A DNA stretch of 50,751 bases, taken from the sequence record MZ826699.1. One strand, written 5' to 3'. The position numbers and the translations under genes are program-made. Positions 1-41,021 of this stretch are shown in pieces. The stretch is from Escherichia phage P817. The stretch's first letter is position 1; each line of letters starts with the position of its first letter. Under the pieces are notes generated by a model. That model saw only the letters and a list, made by a program, of their open reading frames with translations. It was not told the origin of the DNA and did no database searches.

Positions 1-80
1 CCTGCCGTACCTTCACCCTTAAACGTCTTGTTGTAAGAGTCGGTCTTAACGCTTTTTTTACTCATCTGTTTTTCTCCCAA
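1..80 (-). CDS. portal protein, 5' fragment (duplicate of 49385..49464; truncated by window start)
   Basis: Positions 1-1367 match 49385-50751; region corresponds to the first ~26 codons of the portal ORF 48187..49464. Confidence 0.6.
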   Translation of the reverse strand, partial: MGEKQMSKKSVKTDSYNKTFKGEGTA

Positions 81-87
81 TAAAAAA

Positions 88-108
88 GGCTAGGTTGTTA
101 GCCTAGCC
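88..108 (-). terminator. stem-loop GGCTAGG-N7-CCTAGCC with T-run between terL stop and portal start (second copy about 49472..49492)
   Basis: Perfect 7-bp inverted repeat; rc of A6 at 82-87 gives a U-tract on the minus strand. Confidence 0.35.
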
Positions 109-116
109 ATTATACA

Positions 117-1703
117 TTATTTGCGCATTCCCGCTAATCGTTTCATTCGTGCTACCGGATCATCAAGCAAGTTCATTTCGAAGTTGCCAGCATCAACAAC
201 GTTATCCACGATGTCGTCGTGAGGATGGCTATCGTCAAAGGTGAAGCCGACCAGTTCCGCTTCCATTTCAGTAAGCATTGGGTGTGATTCAGGAAACACG
301 ATTCGCCCTGCTTTCATGATTGGTGCTGCGTCCATTGCACGCGTAACTTTATCGGTATCTCGCTGCACTGGCGTGATGTCAATCGGAAGCTTCTTGTTGA
401 TTGACTGAATCAGGCCCGTACCGCTCGCCTTGTCTTCAATGTAAACCTTGCGTAGTGACGTCTTGTTCTCCTTCGCCCACTTGAAGCAGTTTCCGTAAAA
501 GTTAAGAGCCATCGTTTCAAGGTCCGGCGCTTCCCACTTACCGCGAATGCCGTCTATGAAATATACGCGATCCTTATACTTGCCCCACAAAACAAAGACG
601 CTGTAGTCGTGTATTTCCTCTGCCTTCTGCGCTGTATCCGCAGTGGTGAACAGGTATTCGAAGCGATCCGGTTTTGGCATGTTGGCTTTTTCGCCGTCGC
701 CGTAATACTGGAACCAGTCAGACTTAAACGCGTTACCACCAAGCGCGATGGGCTTCTGCTGATACTGTGATTCAAACGTGTAAAGGTCAGCTTCGCGCAA
801 CGCCAGCAGGCTCTCCGCGCTCTCCTTTGCAGGCCAGAAAGAGAAGTGCTCAACCCCGTCAATCATTACAGATGGAGAGGATAGCACGTCTCTGTCAAAT
901 TCCTCTTTCAACCAGTCAGGAAGCGTGTCTCTGTATTCCTCAGTTACCAGCGCCGGAATGATTACCTGCTCAAACTTCATGCCACCCATACCGCCATTCA
1001 TCAGGAACCACGTCGAGTCGTTAACGTGCAGTCGCTGCTGCACAACAACGCATGGCGTTCTGTCAGTCATACGACGTGATCGCACGGTGTTTTTTAGCAG
1101 TGTATGAGCCGCCTTGCGCTTAACGGACGAATACATGTCTTTCGGTTTGTCGGGGTCATCAAGCGTTAACATTCCGGTAAAGCTCCAGGGTTTACTGGGG
1201 TCTTCCATGTACCCGCCACGCTTACCAGTTACCTGGCCGCCGATCGCACGTGATGTTAACGTCAGCCACGCCTTATCGTTATCGTTAAGTGCGGTAATAT
1301 CGCCACCGGACGCCTTAGCAAGTTTGGTAGGCCATAGCTCCTGGAACTCATCGCAACCGATAATCTCACGCGTCCTGATCCCGTTATCCTTCACCAGACT
1401 GTCAGAGAACGAAAGGTTAAGATTTCGAACCTTCGGACTCTTTAACATTCCGTAAACTGGCATGTGGATAGAGAAGATCTCAGTCTTACCGGAGCCTGGC
1501 GTGATGTTGAATATCACGTTCTGCGCCTCGCCTTTGATGATCTGCTCAACCTTCCAGCAAAGGTAAGTGAAGTGCCAGTTGCTTTGGAACTTCTGAGCCT
1601 GCCCGATCTGGAACCAGATTCTCAACATCTTTTCGAATGACTGCTCAGATAGCGCCTTTATTGCCTGCTTTCTTGCAAGGTCGAGATCTTCCCACTGGAT
1701 CAT
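117..1703 (-). CDS. terL: terminase large subunit
   Basis: 528-aa ORF; P-loop-like NITPGSGKTE; sits between a small-terminase-sized ORF and the portal at the head of the structural operon. Confidence 0.8.
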   Translation of the reverse strand: MIQWEDLDLARKQAIKALSEQSFEKMLRIWFQIGQAQKFQSNWHFTYLCWKVEQIIKGEAQNVIFNITPGSGKTEIFSIHMPVYGMLKSPKVRNLNLSFSDSLVKDNGIRTREIIGCDEFQELWPTKLAKASGGDITALNDNDKAWLTLTSRAIGGQVTGKRGGYMEDPSKPWSFTGMLTLDDPDKPKDMYSSVKRKAAHTLLKNTVRSRRMTDRTPCVVVQQRLHVNDSTWFLMNGGMGGMKFEQVIIPALVTEEYRDTLPDWLKEEFDRDVLSSPSVMIDGVEHFSFWPAKESAESLLALREADLYTFESQYQQKPIALGGNAFKSDWFQYYGDGEKANMPKPDRFEYLFTTADTAQKAEEIHDYSVFVLWGKYKDRVYFIDGIRGKWEAPDLETMALNFYGNCFKWAKENKTSLRKVYIEDKASGTGLIQSINKKLPIDITPVQRDTDKVTRAMDAAPIMKAGRIVFPESHPMLTEMEAELVGFTFDDSHPHDDIVDNVVDAGNFEMNLLDDPVARMKRLAGMRK

Positions 1704-2236
1704 AATTCCCCCAAAATATCCTTGACGGCTTCTTTAAATTCATCAGTAGTTACTGACACCGCGCCAGCCGATACGTTGTTCTGCACGTTGACTTCTGCTG
1801 CCTTGTCGATACCAATGTCTTTACCTACGAATCCAGCATTGATAAGGTTGGACGCAGCAAGCTGATATTTCTGTTCAATGATTACTGAGTCAATGAACTC
1901 CATTACCTCAGAGAATCCAGGTGACGCGCGCCAGCTTTGGATCGCACCGGAGGTAACGCCGCAATAAAGCTGGAATCCGTTGAGCGTGAACACTCGCGGC
2001 TTATGCACTAAGTTCTCGGTGACAACACCCTGGAAGCTCGCCGTTTCGATTGCCTTGATTGCCTGGTCCTCGGCCCATGAGAAATACTTAACCGCCAGGT
2101 TGAATACAGTCTCAGGCGTCATTGGGTGGCGGTGGCTCAGGTTGGCGATATCGCCATACTTTTTATTGTACAGCTCTTTGAAGTTACCAATGCGCACCTT
2201 CTCTTGAGCGGTGCTGGTGAAGTTTTCATCTTTCAT
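1700..2236 (-). CDS. terminase small subunit (putative)
   Basis: 178-aa ORF immediately upstream of terL with 4-bp overlap; first gene after terminator and promoter-like sequence. Confidence 0.5.
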   Translation of the reverse strand: MKDENFTSTAQEKVRIGNFKELYNKKYGDIANLSHRHPMTPETVFNLAVKYFSWAEDQAIKAIETASFQGVVTENLVHKPRVFTLNGFQLYCGVTSGAIQSWRASPGFSEVMEFIDSVIIEQKYQLAASNLINAGFVGKDIGIDKAAEVNVQNNVSAGAVSVTTDEFKEAVKDILGEL

Positions 2237-2265
2237 GGTTTCATCCTCTTGTTGAATAGGAAGGA

Positions 2266-2274
2266 ATTATACCA
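2266..2274 (-). promoter_or_regulatory. candidate late promoter, extended -10 (TGGTATAAT) upstream of terS
   Basis: rc of attatacca; lies between a terminator and the terS start; no good -35. Confidence 0.3.
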
Positions 2275-2285
2275 GATTGCAGGCA

Positions 2286-2309
2286 TAAAAAAAGCACCCC
2301 GAAGGATGC
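2286..2309 (-). terminator. intrinsic terminator (GCATCC-TTCG-GGGTGC + T7) downstream of ORF 2319..2540
   Basis: GC stem-loop followed by U-tract on minus strand. Confidence 0.55.
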
Positions 2310-2318
2310 TTAAATGAA

Positions 2319-2540
2319 TCAATCAACGTATTTGATGGCCCCAGGCTTCCGCCCCGATCGAATGTCGTTAATCTCGTTGAACACAGAGATAAACTTGCCG
2401 GATACGCGCCACTGCTTTTTCTTCTCATCGTATCGAGCTTGAGCGAACTGACCTCGCTTAATTAACTTGGCTACCCATGAGCAAGATAATGAAATGATCA
2501 GGACGGAAGCGAAAATAAAACCATAAATAAACGTCAGCAT
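2319..2540 (-). CDS. hypothetical small membrane protein
   Basis: 73 aa; hydrophobic N-terminal segment FIYGFIFASVLIISL. Confidence 0.4.
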   Translation of the reverse strand: MLTFIYGFIFASVLIISLSCSWVAKLIKRGQFAQARYDEKKKQWRVSGKFISVFNEINDIRSGRKPGAIKYVD

Positions 2541-2731
2541 GAAATACCCCTTACATAATTAACTAAAAATTTATGAGTCGTTGTATCGACTCCGCTCATT
2601 TCCTTCACCTTTGAAACGGCTTCTTCGGCGCTACTGGCCTCAACCTTTGCTTCAAAGTTTTGCTTACAAGATGCGCATGTGCGCCCCATTAGCAAAATAG
2701 TTAGCTTGACCTCAAACATATCAAACCTCAT
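2534..2731 (-). CDS. hypothetical protein
   Basis: 65-aa ORF in minus-strand early gene string. Confidence 0.35.
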   Translation of the reverse strand: MRFDMFEVKLTILLMGRTCASCKQNFEAKVEASSAEEAVSKVKEMSGVDTTTHKFLVNYVRGISC

Positions 2732-2906
2732 TGTTAGGTCCGGTTACGGAGTCCGGCGGGCTTTCACAATGCCCCGATTTTTTTTTGCGACTTACACTTT
2801 GCTTTTGGCGATGCGCTATTTCAATTTGCGGCTTACGAACCGCTCGTTGCCACTTGGTGGCCTCGTCTGTTTACGAGATTAAAGATACCAGTCAGTGAGA
2901 TGGCTG

Positions 2907-3868: not shown

Positions 3869-4112
3869 TTCTGCTTCCTCGTTCGTTTCGATGGGGTAAC
3901 TATACAGCTACCCCGATTATGAGTTTTAACAAAAAGTGCTATCGTTGGTGATTTCGTGCAATCTTTTTCAACGCCAACCATATTTTAAAGCTGAAAATTT
4001 CAGGTTTTGTGAATCGTCGCTTCCCGTACTGTCGGCAAAGGCGGCGAACTCGTCGCTTATCAATCCACAGGTCAGTAATTATCTTTTCTGATTTGATTAG
4101 CTTCATGACTAT

Positions 4113-6590: not shown

Positions 6591-6671
6591 ATGTGATTCC
6601 TCAGTTGGTTTGTGTTCACTTGACAGGAGACACTATAGCTAATGTCTCCGAGCAAGTTTTAACAAAAAGTG

Positions 6672-8387: not shown

Positions 8388-8484
8388 TAACGATTTCGAC
8401 AGTGACGTTATCGCTATTGGTCATCGTGTCAATCCAGCAATCGTCATCGTCCATATCCTGGAAGCGCTTGCGATCGGTAATCAT
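8278..8484 (-). CDS. hypothetical acidic protein
   Basis: 68 aa, Asp-rich. Confidence 0.35.
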   Translation of the reverse strand: MITDRKRFQDMDDDDCWIDTMTNSDNVTVEIVIDDDSGAFPMQDPATVRAMGEHLIKMADYMERHNEQ

Positions 8485-8711: not shown

Positions 8712-8790
8712 AAATTACCCCTTAGTTGATTGTTTCACTTCAATGAGTGCACTATAGCAAATGCACTCACGGCAGTTTTAACAAAAAGTG

Positions 8791-10279: not shown

Positions 10280-10800
10280 TATTTTGTCTCCTTAATCATT
10301 TCCTGGTACATTTTGATTGCCTTGATGGCCCCTGTAATCTCATCGCCTTCAAACTCAGTCACGGATGGCATCAGCTTGAGTATTTTGACCTTAAAGTCGC
10401 TCACAGCCTTCTCTGCAATCTGGCAGTTTGCCTTCACTCGCTTTCCTGTCTGGATTGCGCCATCAACCAAAGACAGATAAGCACACCGAACCTCGACGTC
10501 ATCACCGAAATCACCATCCTTAATTGAAAGTTTTGCACGAACGTTTGCCTCCTGTATCTCTGGCATCCTGGCTACCGTATTGGCGACATATGACGCCTTC
10601 AGCTTTGCCATACTGTACTTGCCACCTACATCCAGATCCTCACGACTTATGCCTCCTATATCACTAGATGTGAGGCCGTAAACCTGGCGAGCTATTAGAT
10701 GGATTGGGACGTGGTAGCTGCGGTTCTCGGACTTGAGCGCTTGCTCCGCCATGTAGCGGACGACATCGCCCAGGCTTACGCGTTGATTATGATTTGACAT
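10279..10800 (-). CDS. hypothetical protein (first gene of leftward early operon)
   Basis: 173-aa ORF adjacent to AT-rich divergent control region. Confidence 0.5.
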   Translation of the reverse strand: MSNHNQRVSLGDVVRYMAEQALKSENRSYHVPIHLIARQVYGLTSSDIGGISREDLDVGGKYSMAKLKASYVANTVARMPEIQEANVRAKLSIKDGDFGDDVEVRCAYLSLVDGAIQTGKRVKANCQIAEKAVSDFKVKILKLMPSVTEFEGDEITGAIKAIKMYQEMIKETK

Positions 10801-11519
10801 AGATATTACTCCTGATTGGTGGTCTTCGTTAAGATGGGTGCAATACTACCAGCGTGGTTACATGTTATCAAGTGTTATTGATGCAAATGTTCGACTTAGT
10901 TACGTTTTGCGACCTCTCGCCCCAGATATAGCTCAATGTAAAGTCTGCGTATAGTTTGTAGATAAGGATTTTTAGCAAATGGGCCCCTACATGACCTTTT
11001 ATTCCTACAATGTCGTCATATTCCTACAGGTGTAGGAAAATATCATAGAAAACAATCGCAATATCACATATCCACTATCTACATTATCTACATATATATA
11101 TATTAATAATAATAATATAGATAAATGGTTATTATATAAGGATATTTTAATGTAACCATGGCGTAATTCTGCGTGATAAGCGTACACGATTCCTACGGTG
11201 GGCTTCTTCATCTACACGGCGTAACTTTTATAACGCGTATGCGCTAGAAACGTGTGGCGGGAAAATCCTACCAGGCGATCAGGGGATCAGACTTCACCCC
11301 ATCATTCCCCCCATCAATGAATCATTGCTCAATTCGCAACAATCGAAAACATCATTGCATCGGAAGCAATATTGCTGTATGTGCAATAGTCATGATAATC
11401 ATTGCAATAGCTGCAACAATCCATAAATCCAACGAATGGCACTTTTTTCTAATGACCGATCAGTTGTGATTCGCTATTGTTACTCCATCGAAACGAGTGA
11501 AGAGAACTGGAGAAAATAA
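10801..11519. promoter_or_regulatory. AT-rich divergent control region with palindrome TTCCTACAGGTGTAGGAA, direct repeats (ATTCCTACA, ATCTACAT, ATCATTGC x3); candidate early promoters or origin
   Basis: Non-coding, flanked by divergent genes; about 70 bp shares about 80% identity with 30710..30805. Confidence 0.45.
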
Positions 11520-11699
11520 ATGAGCACTGTTAAAATTCATTGCTACGTCGTGATGGCTGAGCCACGCGAGCCGGAATATGACACTCAGGTGCACTGCGTG
11601 TGCCTCAGTGAGCAGATGGCAGAGCAGGTTTGCGAGAAGATGAACGCAACCGACAAGTACAACCAGTACGACTACTACGAAACGGAGCTACAGAAATGA
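11520..11699 (+). CDS. hypothetical small protein (59 aa)
   Basis: Read by eye: RBS GGAGAAAATAA then ATG; ATGA overlap with next ORF. Confidence 0.35.
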   Translation: MSTVKIHCYVVMAEPREPEYDTQVHCVCLSEQMAEQVCEKMNATDKYNQYDYYETELQK

Positions 11700-21149: not shown

Positions 21150-21215
21150 TTTGTTTTCCTTGGTTGGTTACTTCGTTTCGATGAGGTGATAATACACCAC
21201 CTCACTGATTCGTCT

Positions 21216-23743: not shown

Positions 23744-23827
23744 AGTATTAAATGCCTTTCATGTTCGTTCGATTGACGTTATAATAACAACCATCGAAAC
23801 CAATGTTTAACAAAAAGTGCTATTGAG

Positions 23828-29313: not shown

Positions 29314-29395
29314 TATATATACCTTTGTTTACTTCGTTTGATTTACGGTGATTATAGCAAATCACCGCATTCGTGTTTAGCAAAAAATGCTACGA

Positions 29396-30430: not shown

Positions 30431-30970
30431 CTCTTTAATCCTCGTTCGTTGTTGATGCTGGTAACTATACGCGCTTGGTTGCGTTAGTCAAGTGGTTACA
30501 TGTAGATATTTGTAATCACGTGTATGCAATGGCGTCAGTTACATAAAATGGCTATCCAGACCAGCTATAGCTTGATGTAAACGGCGTGTATATCGTGTAT
30601 ACCATTTTTCGCGGAGGGTGCATTGGTGTATGCGTGATTAGATACTGTATGAATATACATATTAGAAATTTATAAGCGGAACACTCTATAGAAGTAGTTA
30701 CACGATATACACAGTAATATATATAATAATAATAATTATAGTAGAAGGTTGATATATATAGATATTTTAATGTAACTATCGCGTAACTAGGCGTAACTGC
30801 GCGTATATCATTTTTCGCGGACGAGATTGCATACATCGAGTTACATCGGTTACGTGTATATAGTTGCATTTTCATACTTGACACCAAAAAGCACGAATTG
30901 CTAAAGCTCAATTAATGGTTAGTGTATAGTTACCTCATCGAAACGAAAAACACTTAATAAGGATTCAAAA
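30431..30970. promoter_or_regulatory. AT-rich divergent control region homologous to 10801..11519
   Basis: Shares TGGTTACATGT and about 70 bp ...AATAATAAT...GATATTTTAATGTAAC... with region 1; internal repeats GCGTAACT x2 and TATATC...ATTTTTCGCGGA x2. Confidence 0.45.
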
Positions 30971-36256: not shown

Positions 36257-36975
36257 TTACCTAACTCCTTATGCCTACATATCATTACTGTGTGATCCTG
36301 GAACCATCCTGAATAAATGTCTGTCTTTGATAGCTTTCCAAATGCGTGATGTAGGAGTTGATTATTGCCAAGGTAAATCCCCGCGTGGTTCCAAACATCA
36401 GCTTGTAACTTCATGATGATCATATCACCAGGTTCAGGATCTTTTCCGGTTTCAACAAAACCCTCTTTAATGTAGTTGTCCTGGTAGAGATTCTCACCAT
36501 ATTCAGGCTTCCACCACTCGTAAGGCTTTCGGAAGTCATTCAGGATTACGCCGCGCTCTTTGTGCCATGCCATAACCAGTCCCCAGCAATCGAAAGAGCC
36601 AAGCGACCAGGGGCGACCAATCAGAGGCATGGCTTCTGGATGAACGATTCTCATGTCACCTTCTGGCAGACTTACAATCACCCATGGCAATTCCATCTCA
36701 TTCAATACGCACAGGTCGTGAGCGCTTGGTAAAGTGGTCGCCCCGTCTCCAGTGTGGCTATGAACGATGGCGATCGTGGTTAGGTCGGCGTCATCCTCAA
36801 TGCAGGCGTACTGTACAGAATGAAGCTGAAAACCTTTTTCCGGATCTGAGTGAACGTTGTCAATAGGCCAGTATTTTTGAACTCGGCCCTTCTGAGTCAC
36901 CACACCGCAACATTCATTGGGGTAAACTGATTTTGCATGTTCGAAGATTGCCATCTTAATTTTGCCGTTAATCAT
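36250..36975 (-). CDS. tail tip assembly protein (lambda K-like; JAMM/MPN plus NlpC/P60)
   Basis: HSH...SAHD JAMM-like motif; Cys/His-containing C-terminal domain. Confidence 0.7.
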   Translation of the reverse strand: MINGKIKMAIFEHAKSVYPNECCGVVTQKGRVQKYWPIDNVHSDPEKGFQLHSVQYACIEDDADLTTIAIVHSHTGDGATTLPSAHDLCVLNEMELPWVIVSLPEGDMRIVHPEAMPLIGRPWSLGSFDCWGLVMAWHKERGVILNDFRKPYEWWKPEYGENLYQDNYIKEGFVETGKDPEPGDMIIMKLQADVWNHAGIYLGNNQLLHHAFGKLSKTDIYSGWFQDHTVMICRHKELGKC

Positions 36976-38111: not shown

Positions 38112-41021
38112 TTACGCTCCTGCTTTTCCGTTGATGTAATTGTAAACTTCGCCACCCTGTGAGCATGATTCCTGAATCATTTGCTTGAAAATCATTTTCA
38201 CGCCTTGCTCCATACCCTTCGGATCGCTACCGTTATTGATGCTAACAGGGATGCTTCCAATTGTCACGCCGCCAGCCATGATTGCACCGCTGCCGCCACC
38301 GCTTGAAGTTCCACCAACCATCCCGCCATTCGCATAACCTCGCATCATTCGATAAAGGTTATCGACGCCAATTCGCTTGGTGGCTTCCTTGGTCATGACA
38401 AATTCGCCCTTATGAACTGTGCCTGCTGGCTCATATTTTCCACCGTCTCCGGTATAGCCGCCAGTGGCGAACCAACCTGAGTTAGCGAAGGAGAACCCCT
38501 TGCCGCTGCCTCCGCCCATCATTCCTGATAGTGAGTTAAAGATTACCATCTGCGTGATCATCTTAATGATCTGGCTGATAATGCTTTTTGCAAAGTCTGC
38601 AAAGTTGGCCTGCCCCGTCATCAAGAACTCAGTCATCATGTCTGTCAAACCGTTCAGGGCGTTACTTGCGATATTTTCTACGTTTCCGTACATATCCATA
38701 GCACTCTCGCCGTAGTCCGCAAATGCTTTCTGCGCCCCAGCAAGCCAGTCTCCGCGCTTCTCATCCTCGTTGGCGTAATACTCGTTCTGCTTGTCAATCA
38801 TTTTCTTGAGCGCTTCATCATCCTGACCGCCGCCCTTAGCCATGTACTCCGCTCGGATCTTCTCAAGCTGAATCTGGCGCTCTGCCTCAAGTGTACCCAT
38901 GGCGCGCGTGGCGTTAAGGCTTTTGCTCGCTGCGTCAATCTGCATGATGAACTTCATTGAGTCGTCATTCAGTTTGTTGATCTGCTCCTGCTTAACAATC
39001 TGATCACCAAGCTCTGCCTTTTCCTTCGCCAACGAGAGCACCTTTTGCTGACTGGCAAGCAATGCTTTTTCCTCGTTGGTCAGCTTACGCTTACTCTGTG
39101 CATCCTGGAGGATTGAAATCTGAGCCTCAGTAGCCCACAAAGCACGGCGCTGGCTTGAGATCTTGTCGTTAATCGACTTGTGATCTTCCAAAACTTTAAG
39201 CTGAGCTTTGAGAACGTAAAGTTCTTTATCAAGCTGCTCGGTAGCGCCCTTGGTTACTGCGCCGTTGCTCTTAGTTTTCTTCCGGTTCTTTTCCTCAATT
39301 TCTTTAGCTTCCTTCGCTACGGCTTCCTTTGTTTCCTTGGCGTATTGCTTCTCAAGATCACGTCGGCCCTTAAGCGCATTGATGTAACCCATCTCGCCCT
39401 TTTCGACTCGCGCGTTAATAACATCCAGATCTTTTGCAAGGCTGTCGTAGGTGTCCTTGGAGTTCTTAACGATAGTCTGCTGTTCGTTGAGAATATCCTT
39501 ACCGAAATCACTCATACCTGGCAGGCTTTGCGTGGCCTTGATTGCAGAGGCGATAAAGTTAGAAATGTATTCGTCACCCTTGGCGAGAATCATTTTAACC
39601 TGAATCACCGTGCCGCTAACCACATCAATGATGAGGTTTAGAGCACCAAGCGTATGATCTCCAACCCACCCCCAGGCGTCTGATGACCATTTCTTAATGT
39701 CATTCCACATCTTTTCAAGCGGCGTTGCAGTACCTGCAATCTTGCTCATGCGTTCTTCCATGGTGTCGGCAAACAGCTTGGTCGCCTCCGTCACAGCTTC
39801 GGTTTCGCCCTTGGCTTTAACAATCCCGTTAATGTAGGTCAATTGACCTTTCTCAAGGAAGTTGTATTGCTCGTTCAGCTTCGCCAGTCCTTTTACCGGA
39901 TCATCTGCAATCTTGCCGAAGTCACTGATAATATCGCTCGTCGCTCGACCCGTTGCGGCTGACCATTCAGCGGTAGCGCGGGTAATATTCCTGATTTGGT
40001 CCTGAGTGTACTTACCACTTTTCGCAAGCTCAGTAGCAATTTCTCGCACAGATCCGATAGTCGCGTTGCTGGTATCCGCAATTTTGTTTGCAATCTGGTC
40101 AAGGTCCGCCGCGCTCGCCGCTGCAAATCCGCCAGTCTCAATCAAGGCGTTTTTCATATCTGTGATGGAGCGGTAGGAGTCGTAACCAGCTTTAGCAAGG
40201 CCAGCAAGTGCGATACCCATAGCGCCCATACCAACCGTTACCGGATTAAGGTAAGAAAGCAAAACTTTAAACGTATTCCCAACACCGCCGAACGAATCCT
40301 TGATCTGCCCGCCCTGCTGGATTGCAACCAGCCATACAGGCATACCGGAAGCAAGGGAGGTAACAACGTCAGTGATCTGCATTGGCAAGATGCGCAGCGC
40401 GTTCTTGTACTCGCCAGCGGAAAGGCCAGCCGCATTTGTCGCTACAGTCTGCTTGTTCATCGCTGCAATTAAAGGTGCGGCCTGAGTCGATACGCCAAGC
40501 TGTGCCGCCTTCAATTCGAGAAGCTCAGTCTTGGTCATTGTCGCAGCGTTAGCTTGTTCTTGCAGTGATTTAAGGAACCTGTCAGCGTCCTTTGTTGCCG
40601 CCTCTTTGGCTTTTGAGTTAGCCATAGCCGCACGGCCCTCTTCGGTCAGCGCCATCTTGGATCGGTTAAGCGCATTGATCTGAGTTTCAATCATGCTTGA
40701 CAGATTGAAGAACTCGGCGTCTGGAACGAGGCCTTTACTCCAGAGGTTATCCAGGTCAACGCTCGCCTTCTGCAACTGGCGCATTTTTCCGATTGTAGGA
40801 TCAATGGCTTTCTCTACGTCGGCAAATTCTTTCTTCTGGCGCTTAACCTCGTTGTTGAACTCTTTCATCTTCTGCTTTGCTACTTGCTCAGCATCAATGA
40901 AATTGTCAAAGCTCTTTCCGGCTGTGTTGTTCGCCCTGGATAAGTCATCCAGAGATTTAACCGCCGCATCAACCTGGGATACGTCAACCCCAAGCGATAG
41001 CCCTGCAAATTTATCTGTCAT
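38112..41021 (-). CDS. tail tape measure protein
   Basis: 969 aa, coiled-coil-rich with Gly-rich C-terminal region; follows G/G-T chaperone. Confidence 0.85.

Follow-up and report, generated by a model that had tools for sequence, protein, structure and literature searches.

A probable composite control region with a candidate packaging site at the packaging-start end of a T1-like phage genome

The region between the leftward and rightward operons of Escherichia phage P817 (MZ826699.1), at positions 10801-11519 (719 bp), is probably a composite, modular and non-coding control region situated at the packaging-start end of T1-family genomes. The window analysed here is the complete 50,751-bp genome of this T1-like phage, a Nouzillyvirus-like member of the Drexlerviridae. 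Four modules can be told apart in the region, namely a leftward promoter (P_L), a central module rich in A and T, an insert of about 180 bp and a rightward promoter (P_R). Packaging initiation is the main and best-supported function of its right third, a function that had not been considered in an earlier sequence-only reading, which had described an AT-rich divergent control region and proposed a candidate origin or early promoter hub. Sequence anatomy, conservation, paralogy, motif uniqueness and the mapping of relatives' genome ends were established directly, and from these we infer protein binding, transcription starts, cut sites in P817 and any origin function.

The insert occupies 11262-11440 and is a candidate pac region from which packaging would run leftward. 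It has no counterpart in a second divergent region of the genome (30431-30970), a paralogue with which the region is otherwise collinear in a global alignment. Besides a C-rich 12-mer tandem repeat (TTCACCCCATCA / TTCCCCCCATCA; 11293-11316, plus strand), the insert holds an array of four 17-bp inverted repeats of the form ATTGC-N7-GCAAY (11324-11417), which is the best candidate for the site that the small terminase would recognise. The units start at 11324, 11354, 11371 and 11401, a 30/17/30 spacing with its dyad between 11370 and 11371. The four-unit array occurs once in the genome and is absent from the paralogous second region, and a single further unit, at 39724, compares with 0.36 expected from shuffled sequences. 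Three of the five genome copies of ATCATTGC (11321, 11351 and 11398) and three of the four copies of TATCTACA lie in the region (Poisson p about 1e-6 to 4e-6). The sequence-only reading had listed the three ATCATTGC repeats interleaved with GCAATA, as they are indeed found, but its description of them as iteron-like does not hold, since they resolve into the four inverted repeats, a region-specific array separate from the central module that coincides with the genome ends of relatives.

The region and its surroundings are 88-98% identical to Nouzillyvirus phages (p111, PH1062, CJ19, P818 and 50EP), with more distant matches in Rtp, MSK, SU57, Rogue1-like phages and T1. No other part of the region is conserved as widely as the array block, which is 85-91% identical in genera in which the flanks can no longer be aligned, and MSK, phiEB49, Sf12, Sd1 and every Nouzillyvirus examined keep exactly the 30/17/30 spacing. 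In a comparison of 17 phages, variation affects 5 of 40 positions in the arms of the units and 18 of 28 in the spacers (Fisher p = 1.6e-5). Such conservation confined to the arms is read as the signature of a protein recognising half-sites, not of coding sequence or RNA.

The genome ends of relatives fall within the same insert. The record of T1 annotates a terminal repeat (repeat_region 1..2800), and its position 1 aligns to window position 11370; in T1 there are two units, separated by the same 13-nt linker, and the record opens immediately behind the second of them, a point that corresponds to the dyad of the P817 array. For MSK, PhageTerm placed the packaging start at 36,862 in the forward direction (MSK paper), which maps to 11289, and the record of UDF157lw, which was reorganised by PhageTerm, has its junction at about 11291, so that both PhageTerm-derived ends (11289-11291) lie 1-4 bp to the left of the C-rich 12-mer repeat. 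The end of SU57 was chosen from PhageTerm, a coverage step and comparison with T1, and maps to about 11270; according to the same study the pac of T1 is located in this untranslated region (SU57 paper). Records start at 11376 for Rtp and OzMSK and at 11416 for ESCO41 and XT34, and overall the ends of relatives span 11270-11416. All of these records run leftward in the orientation of the window, so that packaging would go from the insert toward 10800.

Packaging in this family is of the headful type, with terminal redundancy and limited permutation (TLS, MSK and SU57 papers). The small terminase of P817 (178 amino acids; 1700-2236, minus strand) matches PF16677 (GP3_package) with an E-value of 2.6e-8, above the cutoff, and its gene overlaps the start of that for the 528-amino-acid large subunit (117-1703), as befits a headful-type terminase. 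The protein is 56% identical to its counterpart in T1, and the early gene adjoining the site is unrelated between the two phages. Late in infection, this P22-gp3-type small terminase would recognise the four inverted repeats at 11324-11417, a first cut would fall within about 11270-11420, and headful packaging would then proceed leftward in the direction of 10800.

Several observations weigh against this reading. The ends of relatives are scattered over about 150 bp, and some of them were probably set by convention (Rtp, Rogue1, OzMSK, XT34 and possibly ESCO41), while position 1 of T1 is taken as a true end from the annotation of its record and from secondary statements. All end mapping comes from relatives, P817 itself being known as a sequence. 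The two ends placed at the level of the nucleotide by PhageTerm, those of MSK and UDF157lw, fall outside the array, about 33 bp to its left, so that recognition could take place at the C-rich repeats or elsewhere in the insert. The array also ends just 20 bp upstream of the direct repeat (DR) that forms part of P_R, and could hence be an operator of that promoter. An arrangement in which the ATTGC-N7-GCAAY array acts as operator or enhancer of P_R, with the genome ends directed by another part of the insert, would be in keeping with this proximity and with the two PhageTerm ends outside the array. We nevertheless regard it as improbable, because neither the DR promoter of the second divergent region nor about 17 other DR promoters have such an array, because position 1 of T1 falls exactly at the end of its second unit, and because the whole family keeps the array together with the small terminase, even as the early genes beside it are exchanged for others.

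The left end and pac of coliphage T1 (NC_005833) resemble the P817 region in many respects: they occupy the same divergent intergenic stretch, from which two operons of small genes lead outward, an ATTGC-N7-GCAAC unit is followed by the 13-nt linker and a second unit, an AT tract is accompanied by GGCGTAATTT repeats, a DR-class promoter stands on the far side, and a second, paralogous AT module is found in the cor/exoVIII intergenic region. The two phages differ in that T1 has two units where P817 has four, that ATTCCAG/TGGAAT sites, on the other side of the end, take the place of the TTCCTACA sites described below, that the first genes of the flanking operon are unrelated, and that at the nucleotide level they are too dissimilar for BLASTN at E <= 1e-3.

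Likenesses also exist to the pac sites of P22/Sf6 and SPP1, beginning with the P22-gp3-type small terminase of P817. The initiation ends of P22 are scattered over about 100-150 bp, much like the ends in the P817 family, and the array recalls the repeated recognition boxes that flank the cut zone in pacL-pacC-pacR of SPP1. In P22, Sf6, SPP1 and P1, pac lies inside or next to the small-terminase gene, whereas the candidate site of P817 is about 9 kb away from it. The same separation is seen in T1, with the small-terminase gene at 8396 and the genome end at position 1. Furthermore, the P817 site consists, unlike the P22-like and SPP1 sites, of four dyad-symmetric 17-bp units at 30/17/30 spacing, and no P22 pac sequence was matched with up to 3 mismatches.

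The sequence-only reading had called the region non-coding, and this is borne out by the finding that each internal open reading frame (ORF) has a stop or a frameshift in at least one close relative. That the region instead encodes small proteins, such as the 'membrane protein' of relatives across 11329-11442, or a structured RNA is very improbable. Such a view can draw on the best-preserved ORF, on the minus strand at 11329-11442 (37 amino acids), which is intact in eight of the nine phages of the close-relative alignment, P817 counted, and is annotated in CEB_EC3a and BUCT-XGG-1. However, this ORF is without third-position bias (14, 12 and 17 variable columns at the three codon positions), stop codons interrupt it in ETEP102, e4/1c and 50EP, and the variation sits in the spacers of the inverted repeats. 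PHROGs gave no family for the three internal ORFs tested, Rfam returned no match on the whole genome at gathering thresholds and none on the region even at E <= 1, and ARAGORN found no tRNA. A protein-coding function was rejected on the grounds that frames are broken in relatives and codon periodicity is absent.

In public records, small 'membrane' or 'hypothetical' coding sequences (CDS) are annotated across the pac array and the AT tract, at 102-218 of locus L002 (CEB_EC3a gp15), at 1117-1263 of L086 (BUCT-XGG-1), at 3191-3355 of L001 (CJ19_063) and, as several small CDS, in L082 (PH1062). Given the frames broken in relatives, the lack of codon bias and the lack of a family, these annotations are very likely spurious.

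Apart from packaging, the region appears to serve transcription in both directions, and the earlier description of a divergent control region or promoter hub stands, with a sigma-70 promoter, P_L, facing left and a promoter of a different class, P_R, facing right. P_L (10843-10871, minus strand) was found both in a consensus scan and in a position weight matrix (PWM) scan and is conserved in 9 relatives. It comprises a -35 hexamer TTGATA (10871-10866), a 17-bp spacer and an extended -10 element TGg-TAGTAT (10848-10843), and its PWM score of 14.2 is the third best of the genome with both strands scanned, in the correct orientation. The promoter sits 36 nt upstream of the ATG at 10800; from a predicted start at about 10835-10836 the sequence continues with CATCTTAACGA, a ribosome-binding site (RBS) AGGAG (10813-10809) and the start codon of the gene for a 173-amino-acid DUF7174 protein. 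These elements support a near-consensus sigma-70 promoter. Early in infection, the host sigma-70 RNA polymerase would start at this strong promoter and transcribe the long leftward operon of small early genes, in which the gene at 10800 is followed by about 25 small genes and then by the terminase genes.

An equivalent promoter is present in the second divergent region (TTGACT-16-TATAGT at 30491-30464, score 12.6). The two regions also have TGGTTACATGT in common, as had been noticed before, and its only occurrences in the genome are at 10855 (10855-10865) and at 30493. Since this motif falls within the P_L spacer here and directly upstream of the -35 element in the second region, its positions relative to the two promoters are not equivalent. 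No study mapping start sites in the T1 family was found in the literature.

P_R (11433-11496, plus strand) is made up differently. It begins with the DR AATGGCACTTTTTTCTAATGA (11433-11453), followed by a weak -35 element ATGACC (11452-11457), a 17-bp spacer, the -10 element TATTGT (11475-11480) and the 11-mer CATCGAAACGA (11486-11496) with a predicted start at about 11487, after which come an RBS GGAG at 11509 and the ATG at 11520. This start codon heads the rightward operon, which opens with the gene of a 59-amino-acid protein and continues with small genes and a helicase; the genes flanking the region are DUF7174 and DUF7336.

The arrangement of P_R recurs throughout the genome. CATCGAAACGA is present in 6 exact copies, each lying 24-35 nt upstream of a start codon and pointing the same way as the gene, and with one mismatch 7 copies are observed compared with 1.2 in shuffles. 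TAGCAC-N3-TTGCTAA lies about 50 nt upstream of every one of these copies and has 22 genome matches where 1.3 would be expected. When 18 DR copies are aligned (3926, 4413, 5774, 6659, 7705, 7962, 8778, 9703, 11437, 12350, 13268, 16269, 17889, 19902, 21216, 23807, 29377 and 30889), a TAnnnT hexamer follows 20-22 nt past the DR, then 5 nt and then C-A. The DR itself (TAGCAC-N3-TTGYTAA) is near-palindromic, with its centre near -42. Because a -10-like hexamer and a conserved start stand at a fixed distance from it, the DR is, as judged from these alignments, part of a phage-specific promoter class.

Direct repeats of 21 nt (aaATAGCACnnnTTGnTAAAA) have been described in TLS and were also noted in T1, Rtp and Rogue1, and their function was left open between a stoperator, an enhancer and an UP element (PMC11447400). 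The DR at 11433-11453 matches these repeats, of which the P817 genome has about 20 copies. AATGGCACTTTTTTCTAATGA has 2 mismatches in the 16-nt core, and relatives carry AATAGCACTTTTTGCTAA. The distance from DR to start codon is 87 nt here and about 75-85 nt for the other P817 copies, compared with about 76 nt for the TLS repeat. What sets the P817 repeats apart from the TLS description is their tie to a -10-like hexamer at 20-22 nt and to a conserved start.

The rightward operon would accordingly be read from a promoter of the phage's own class, with the DR near -42, a weak -35 element, a TAnnnT -10 element and a start in CATCGAAACGA. Its geometry suggests dependence on an activator, and P_R therefore probably fires later than P_L. 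This part of the interpretation has its own difficulties, in that P_R scores poorly as a sigma-70 promoter (PWM score 8.8) and that the sole candidate for the activator protein has Cro-like helix-turn-helix matches that stay below threshold. Parallels are offered by class II activator-dependent promoters (site near -41.5) and the MotA middle promoters of T4, in which a conserved and partly dyad-symmetric upstream box takes over the function of a weak -35 element, in combination with a good -10 element. However, the P817 box matches neither CRP/FNR nor the MotA box in sequence or spacing, the MotA box being 12 bp from the -10 element and the P817 box 22 bp.

Two further observations concern the DR promoters. 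Twelve of the 18 carry a very stable hairpin within or around the -10 hexamer (z < -2 relative to shuffles, for the 40 nt downstream of the DR), for example at 3886-3925, 6619-6658, 8738-8777, 21176-21215 and 29337-29376, with arms that differ among copies (GGGGTA/TACCCC, GGAGAC/GTCTCC, GAGTGC/GCACTC and others); the DR promoters at operon heads (11437 and 30889) are without one (z about 0). Their probable targets are transcripts that read through from the upstream gene, which they would either terminate or protect at the 3' end. In addition, a third, short divergent region (23744-23827) separates a 700-amino-acid helicase on the minus strand from a 160-amino-acid protein with sub-threshold Cro-like helix-turn-helix matches on the plus strand, and in it a minus-strand DR (23807-23822) overlaps a plus-strand promoter with TATAAT and CATCGAAACCA (23792). 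The 160-amino-acid protein is the only visible candidate for a transcription regulator of the phage.

Between P_L and the pac block lies a module that would bind protein and be prone to unwinding, composed of TTCCTACA sites, a tract of about 92% AT and phased GCGT repeats, and duplicated in the exoVIII/cor divergent region. The GC content of the region is 38.2%, compared with 47.1% for the genome, and falls to 8% in the core, in line with the AT-richness noted in the sequence-only reading, whose listed repeats were all recovered where it had placed them. A conserved block CCAGATATAGCTCAATGTAAA (10922-10942) has a palindromic core, AGCTATAGCT, that is present in Rtp and in the second region (30561-30581). 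The TTCCTACA sites are clustered at 11001-11038, with direct copies at 11002 and 11021 (19-bp spacing) and an inverted copy at 11031. The copies at 11021 and 11031 make up the palindrome TTCCTACA-GG-TGTAGGAA (11021-11038), which is unique in the genome; it is preceded by the direct copy of ATTCCTACA at 11001 that had been reported together with it, and ATTCCTACA recurs at 11020. A fourth copy of the cluster motif, ATTCCTAC, is found at 11189-11196, and four of the five genome copies of GTAGGAA/TTCCTAC lie in the region (Poisson p about 7e-9). Palindromes with 8-bp arms arise in 8.5% of shuffles, so that the weight of this one comes not from its rarity but from its conservation in MSK, SU57 and UDF157lw. 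Its arms are kept and its centre varies (GG, AG, CT, G) in CJ19, MSK, SU57 and UDF157lw, which points to a binding site for a dimeric protein.

The AT tract begins to the right of these sites. At its left edge, direct repeats of ATCTACAT had been listed in two copies; the repetition is there, but the true unit is the tandem TATCTACAT, present twice at 11076-11093 (plus strand). The (AT)n/(AAT)n tract that had also been described resolves into (TA)5 at 11093-11102 and (TAA)4T at 11104-11116 (11093-11116 as a whole), within an extreme AT tract at 11084-11150. The 60-bp segment 11092-11151 has a GC content of 8.3%, and with -54.3 kcal/mol it is less stable than any other 60-bp duplex in the genome, for which the mean is -83.2 (standard deviation 5.0); its paralogue at 30715-30774 comes second (-55.6), followed by a value of -65.8. 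The paralogous module as a whole (11094-11183) contains the AT tract, GATATTTTAATGTAACCAT and three GCGT repeats at 11161, 11171 and 11180 (GGCGTAATTC / TGCGTGATAA / GCGTACAC) with 10- and 9-bp phasing. Further to the right, a conserved block ATCTACACGGCGTAACTTTTATAACGCGTATGCGCTAG (11205-11247) is kept in relatives and in Rtp.

Positions 11094-11174 are 81.5% identical over 81 nt to 30717-30794 (E = 3e-15 within the genome), in agreement with the similarity of about 80% estimated before. The same pairing of two regions exists in T1 (74.7% over 91 nt) and in Rtp (82.9% over 123 nt), with two copies of GGCGTAATTT in T1 at the equivalent place. The two copies of T1 match each other and not those of Rtp or P817 at E <= 1e-3, so the paralogues are more alike within a genome than the orthologues are across distant genomes. 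The second divergent region, between exonuclease VIII and the Cor lipoprotein, has features of its own, including five of the six genome copies of GTGTATA, all three of CGTGTATA, ten GTTAC/GTAAC pentamers in 540 bp, and three GCGT repeats at exact 10-bp phasing (30781-30804), a pattern never seen in shuffles.

Two functions of the central module have to be weighed, and we lean slightly to a replication origin over a transcription-switch site shared by the two regions. An origin confined to the central module (about 11076-11183), with its second copy at 30717-30794, is possible, although we would not expect it with any confidence. In such an origin the AT tract at 11092-11151 would be the DNA-unwinding element and the GCGT repeats, the TTCCTACA sites or both would be the initiator sites, perhaps helped by transcription from the neighbouring promoters, all of which could coexist with the composite control region proposed here. 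In duplex stability the two paralogous AT tracts stand far below every other segment of the genome, short repeats with 9-10-bp phasing adjoin the tract in both copies, and the pairing is conserved in T1 and Rtp; in T1 the two regions are also the largest non-coding stretches, at about 700 and 527 bp, the next being at most 194 bp. The tracts are, moreover, more than 110-220 bp from the promoters mapped by consensus, and a role as UP element was rejected because of this distance. The TLS and SU57 papers both give the origin of T1-like phages as unknown: the former, from 2024, assigned pac by a six-base resemblance to P22 and reported no origin-like repeats (PMC11447400), the latter reported neither a pac recognition sequence nor an origin, and no study mapping an origin in the T1 family was found in the literature. 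Against an origin, the repeats are short and degenerate compared with classical iterons, of which three or more of about 17-22 bp would be usual: the module has three GCGT repeats of 9-10 bp and, in TTCCTACA and TATCTACAT, repeats of 8-9 bp. Neither divergent region contains a DnaA (TTWTNCACA) or an IHF (WATCAANNNNTTR) consensus site, no recognisable initiator gene adjoins the module, its flanks being DUF7174 and DUF7336, a comparison of the module with the plasmids in PLSDB gave no similarity, and GC skew tracks gene orientation and is uninformative, with no origin signal in it.

The more specific proposal that the pair of modules (about 11076-11183 and 30700-30805), conserved in T1, Rtp and Nouzillyviruses, forms a two-copy origin of the T1 family, with the AT tract unwinding and the GCGT or TTCCTACA-type repeats binding an initiator, is tentative and rather unlikely as it stands. 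Its models would be origins with iterons and an unwinding element (lambda ori, plasmids), in which phased direct repeats of short length border an easily melted AT-rich tract, and phage origins present in two copies (SPP1 oriL/oriR, P4 ori/crr), which the two P817 copies, about 19.6 kb apart, resemble; it departs from these models in that the P817 repeats measure only 9-10 bp and that an adjacent initiator gene and DnaA/IHF boxes are absent. About as doubtful is a shared switch, in which the module and the common motifs (TGGTTACATGT, AGCTATAGCT and GCGT) would be operators for a regulator or a nucleoid-type protein that coordinates the shut-off or timing of the divergent promoters of both regions, like p4/p6 at the early/late control region of phi29. 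The collinearity of the two regions over several separate blocks beyond the AT tract speaks for a switch, as do palindromic or repeated motifs whose arms are conserved and whose centres vary, the private repeats of each region (TTCCTACA here, CGTGTATA in the second) and the consideration that a phage using the host RNA polymerase must time its genes somehow (TLS paper, PMC11447400). However, the AT tract and repeats are 110-300 bp from the promoters that they would control, the module has no conserved promoter inside it, and the 160-amino-acid protein with its sub-threshold Cro-like matches is the sole candidate for the regulator. TATAAT-like matches inside the AT module were not accepted as promoters, as none is positionally conserved between the two regions and such matches are expected in AT-rich DNA. 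As a side observation, the DnaA box TTWTNCACA occurs once in the whole genome, a mild depletion compared with the 5.5 +/- 2.4 expected from shuffles.

For the most part the region is of a known kind, since the map location of the T1 pac, the terminal repeat and the DR elements have already been published. What appears to be new with respect to the literature searched is the nucleotide architecture of the pac candidate, the fixed geometry between DR and -10 element and the duplication of the AT/repeat module throughout the family; neither the four-unit array nor the duplicated module seems to have been described there. Although T1 is a classic among phages and notorious as a contaminant of laboratories, two of its basic cis sites, the recognition sequence of the terminase and the replication origin, are undefined at the sequence level in that literature. 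The four ATTGC-N7-GCAAY units, with invariant spacing and conserved across the family, offer a concrete and testable pac candidate, and the search for an origin is narrowed to two paralogous modules of 100 bp. Furthermore, the enigmatic direct repeats of the family, standing at a fixed distance from -10 elements, become part of a promoter class. A defined pac site would aid the engineering of T1-like phages, the prediction of generalised transduction and the consistent annotation of genome starts.

Searches for related loci with the 173-amino-acid protein as query returned one locus, and two pattern scans of IMG/VR gave chance matches for the most part, the useful ones being T1-like contigs only. 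Finally, immediately past the DR and the -35 element of P_R (11453-11530 against relatives, alignment columns 660-751), the close relatives lose their homology and fall into three or more unrelated sequence types, one in the window, CJ19, P818 and 50EP, one in p111 and GaoY1-9D, and one in PH1062 and BUCT-XGG-1, with a different first gene in each. The conserved DR thus seems to be a mosaic junction at which gene cassettes are exchanged.

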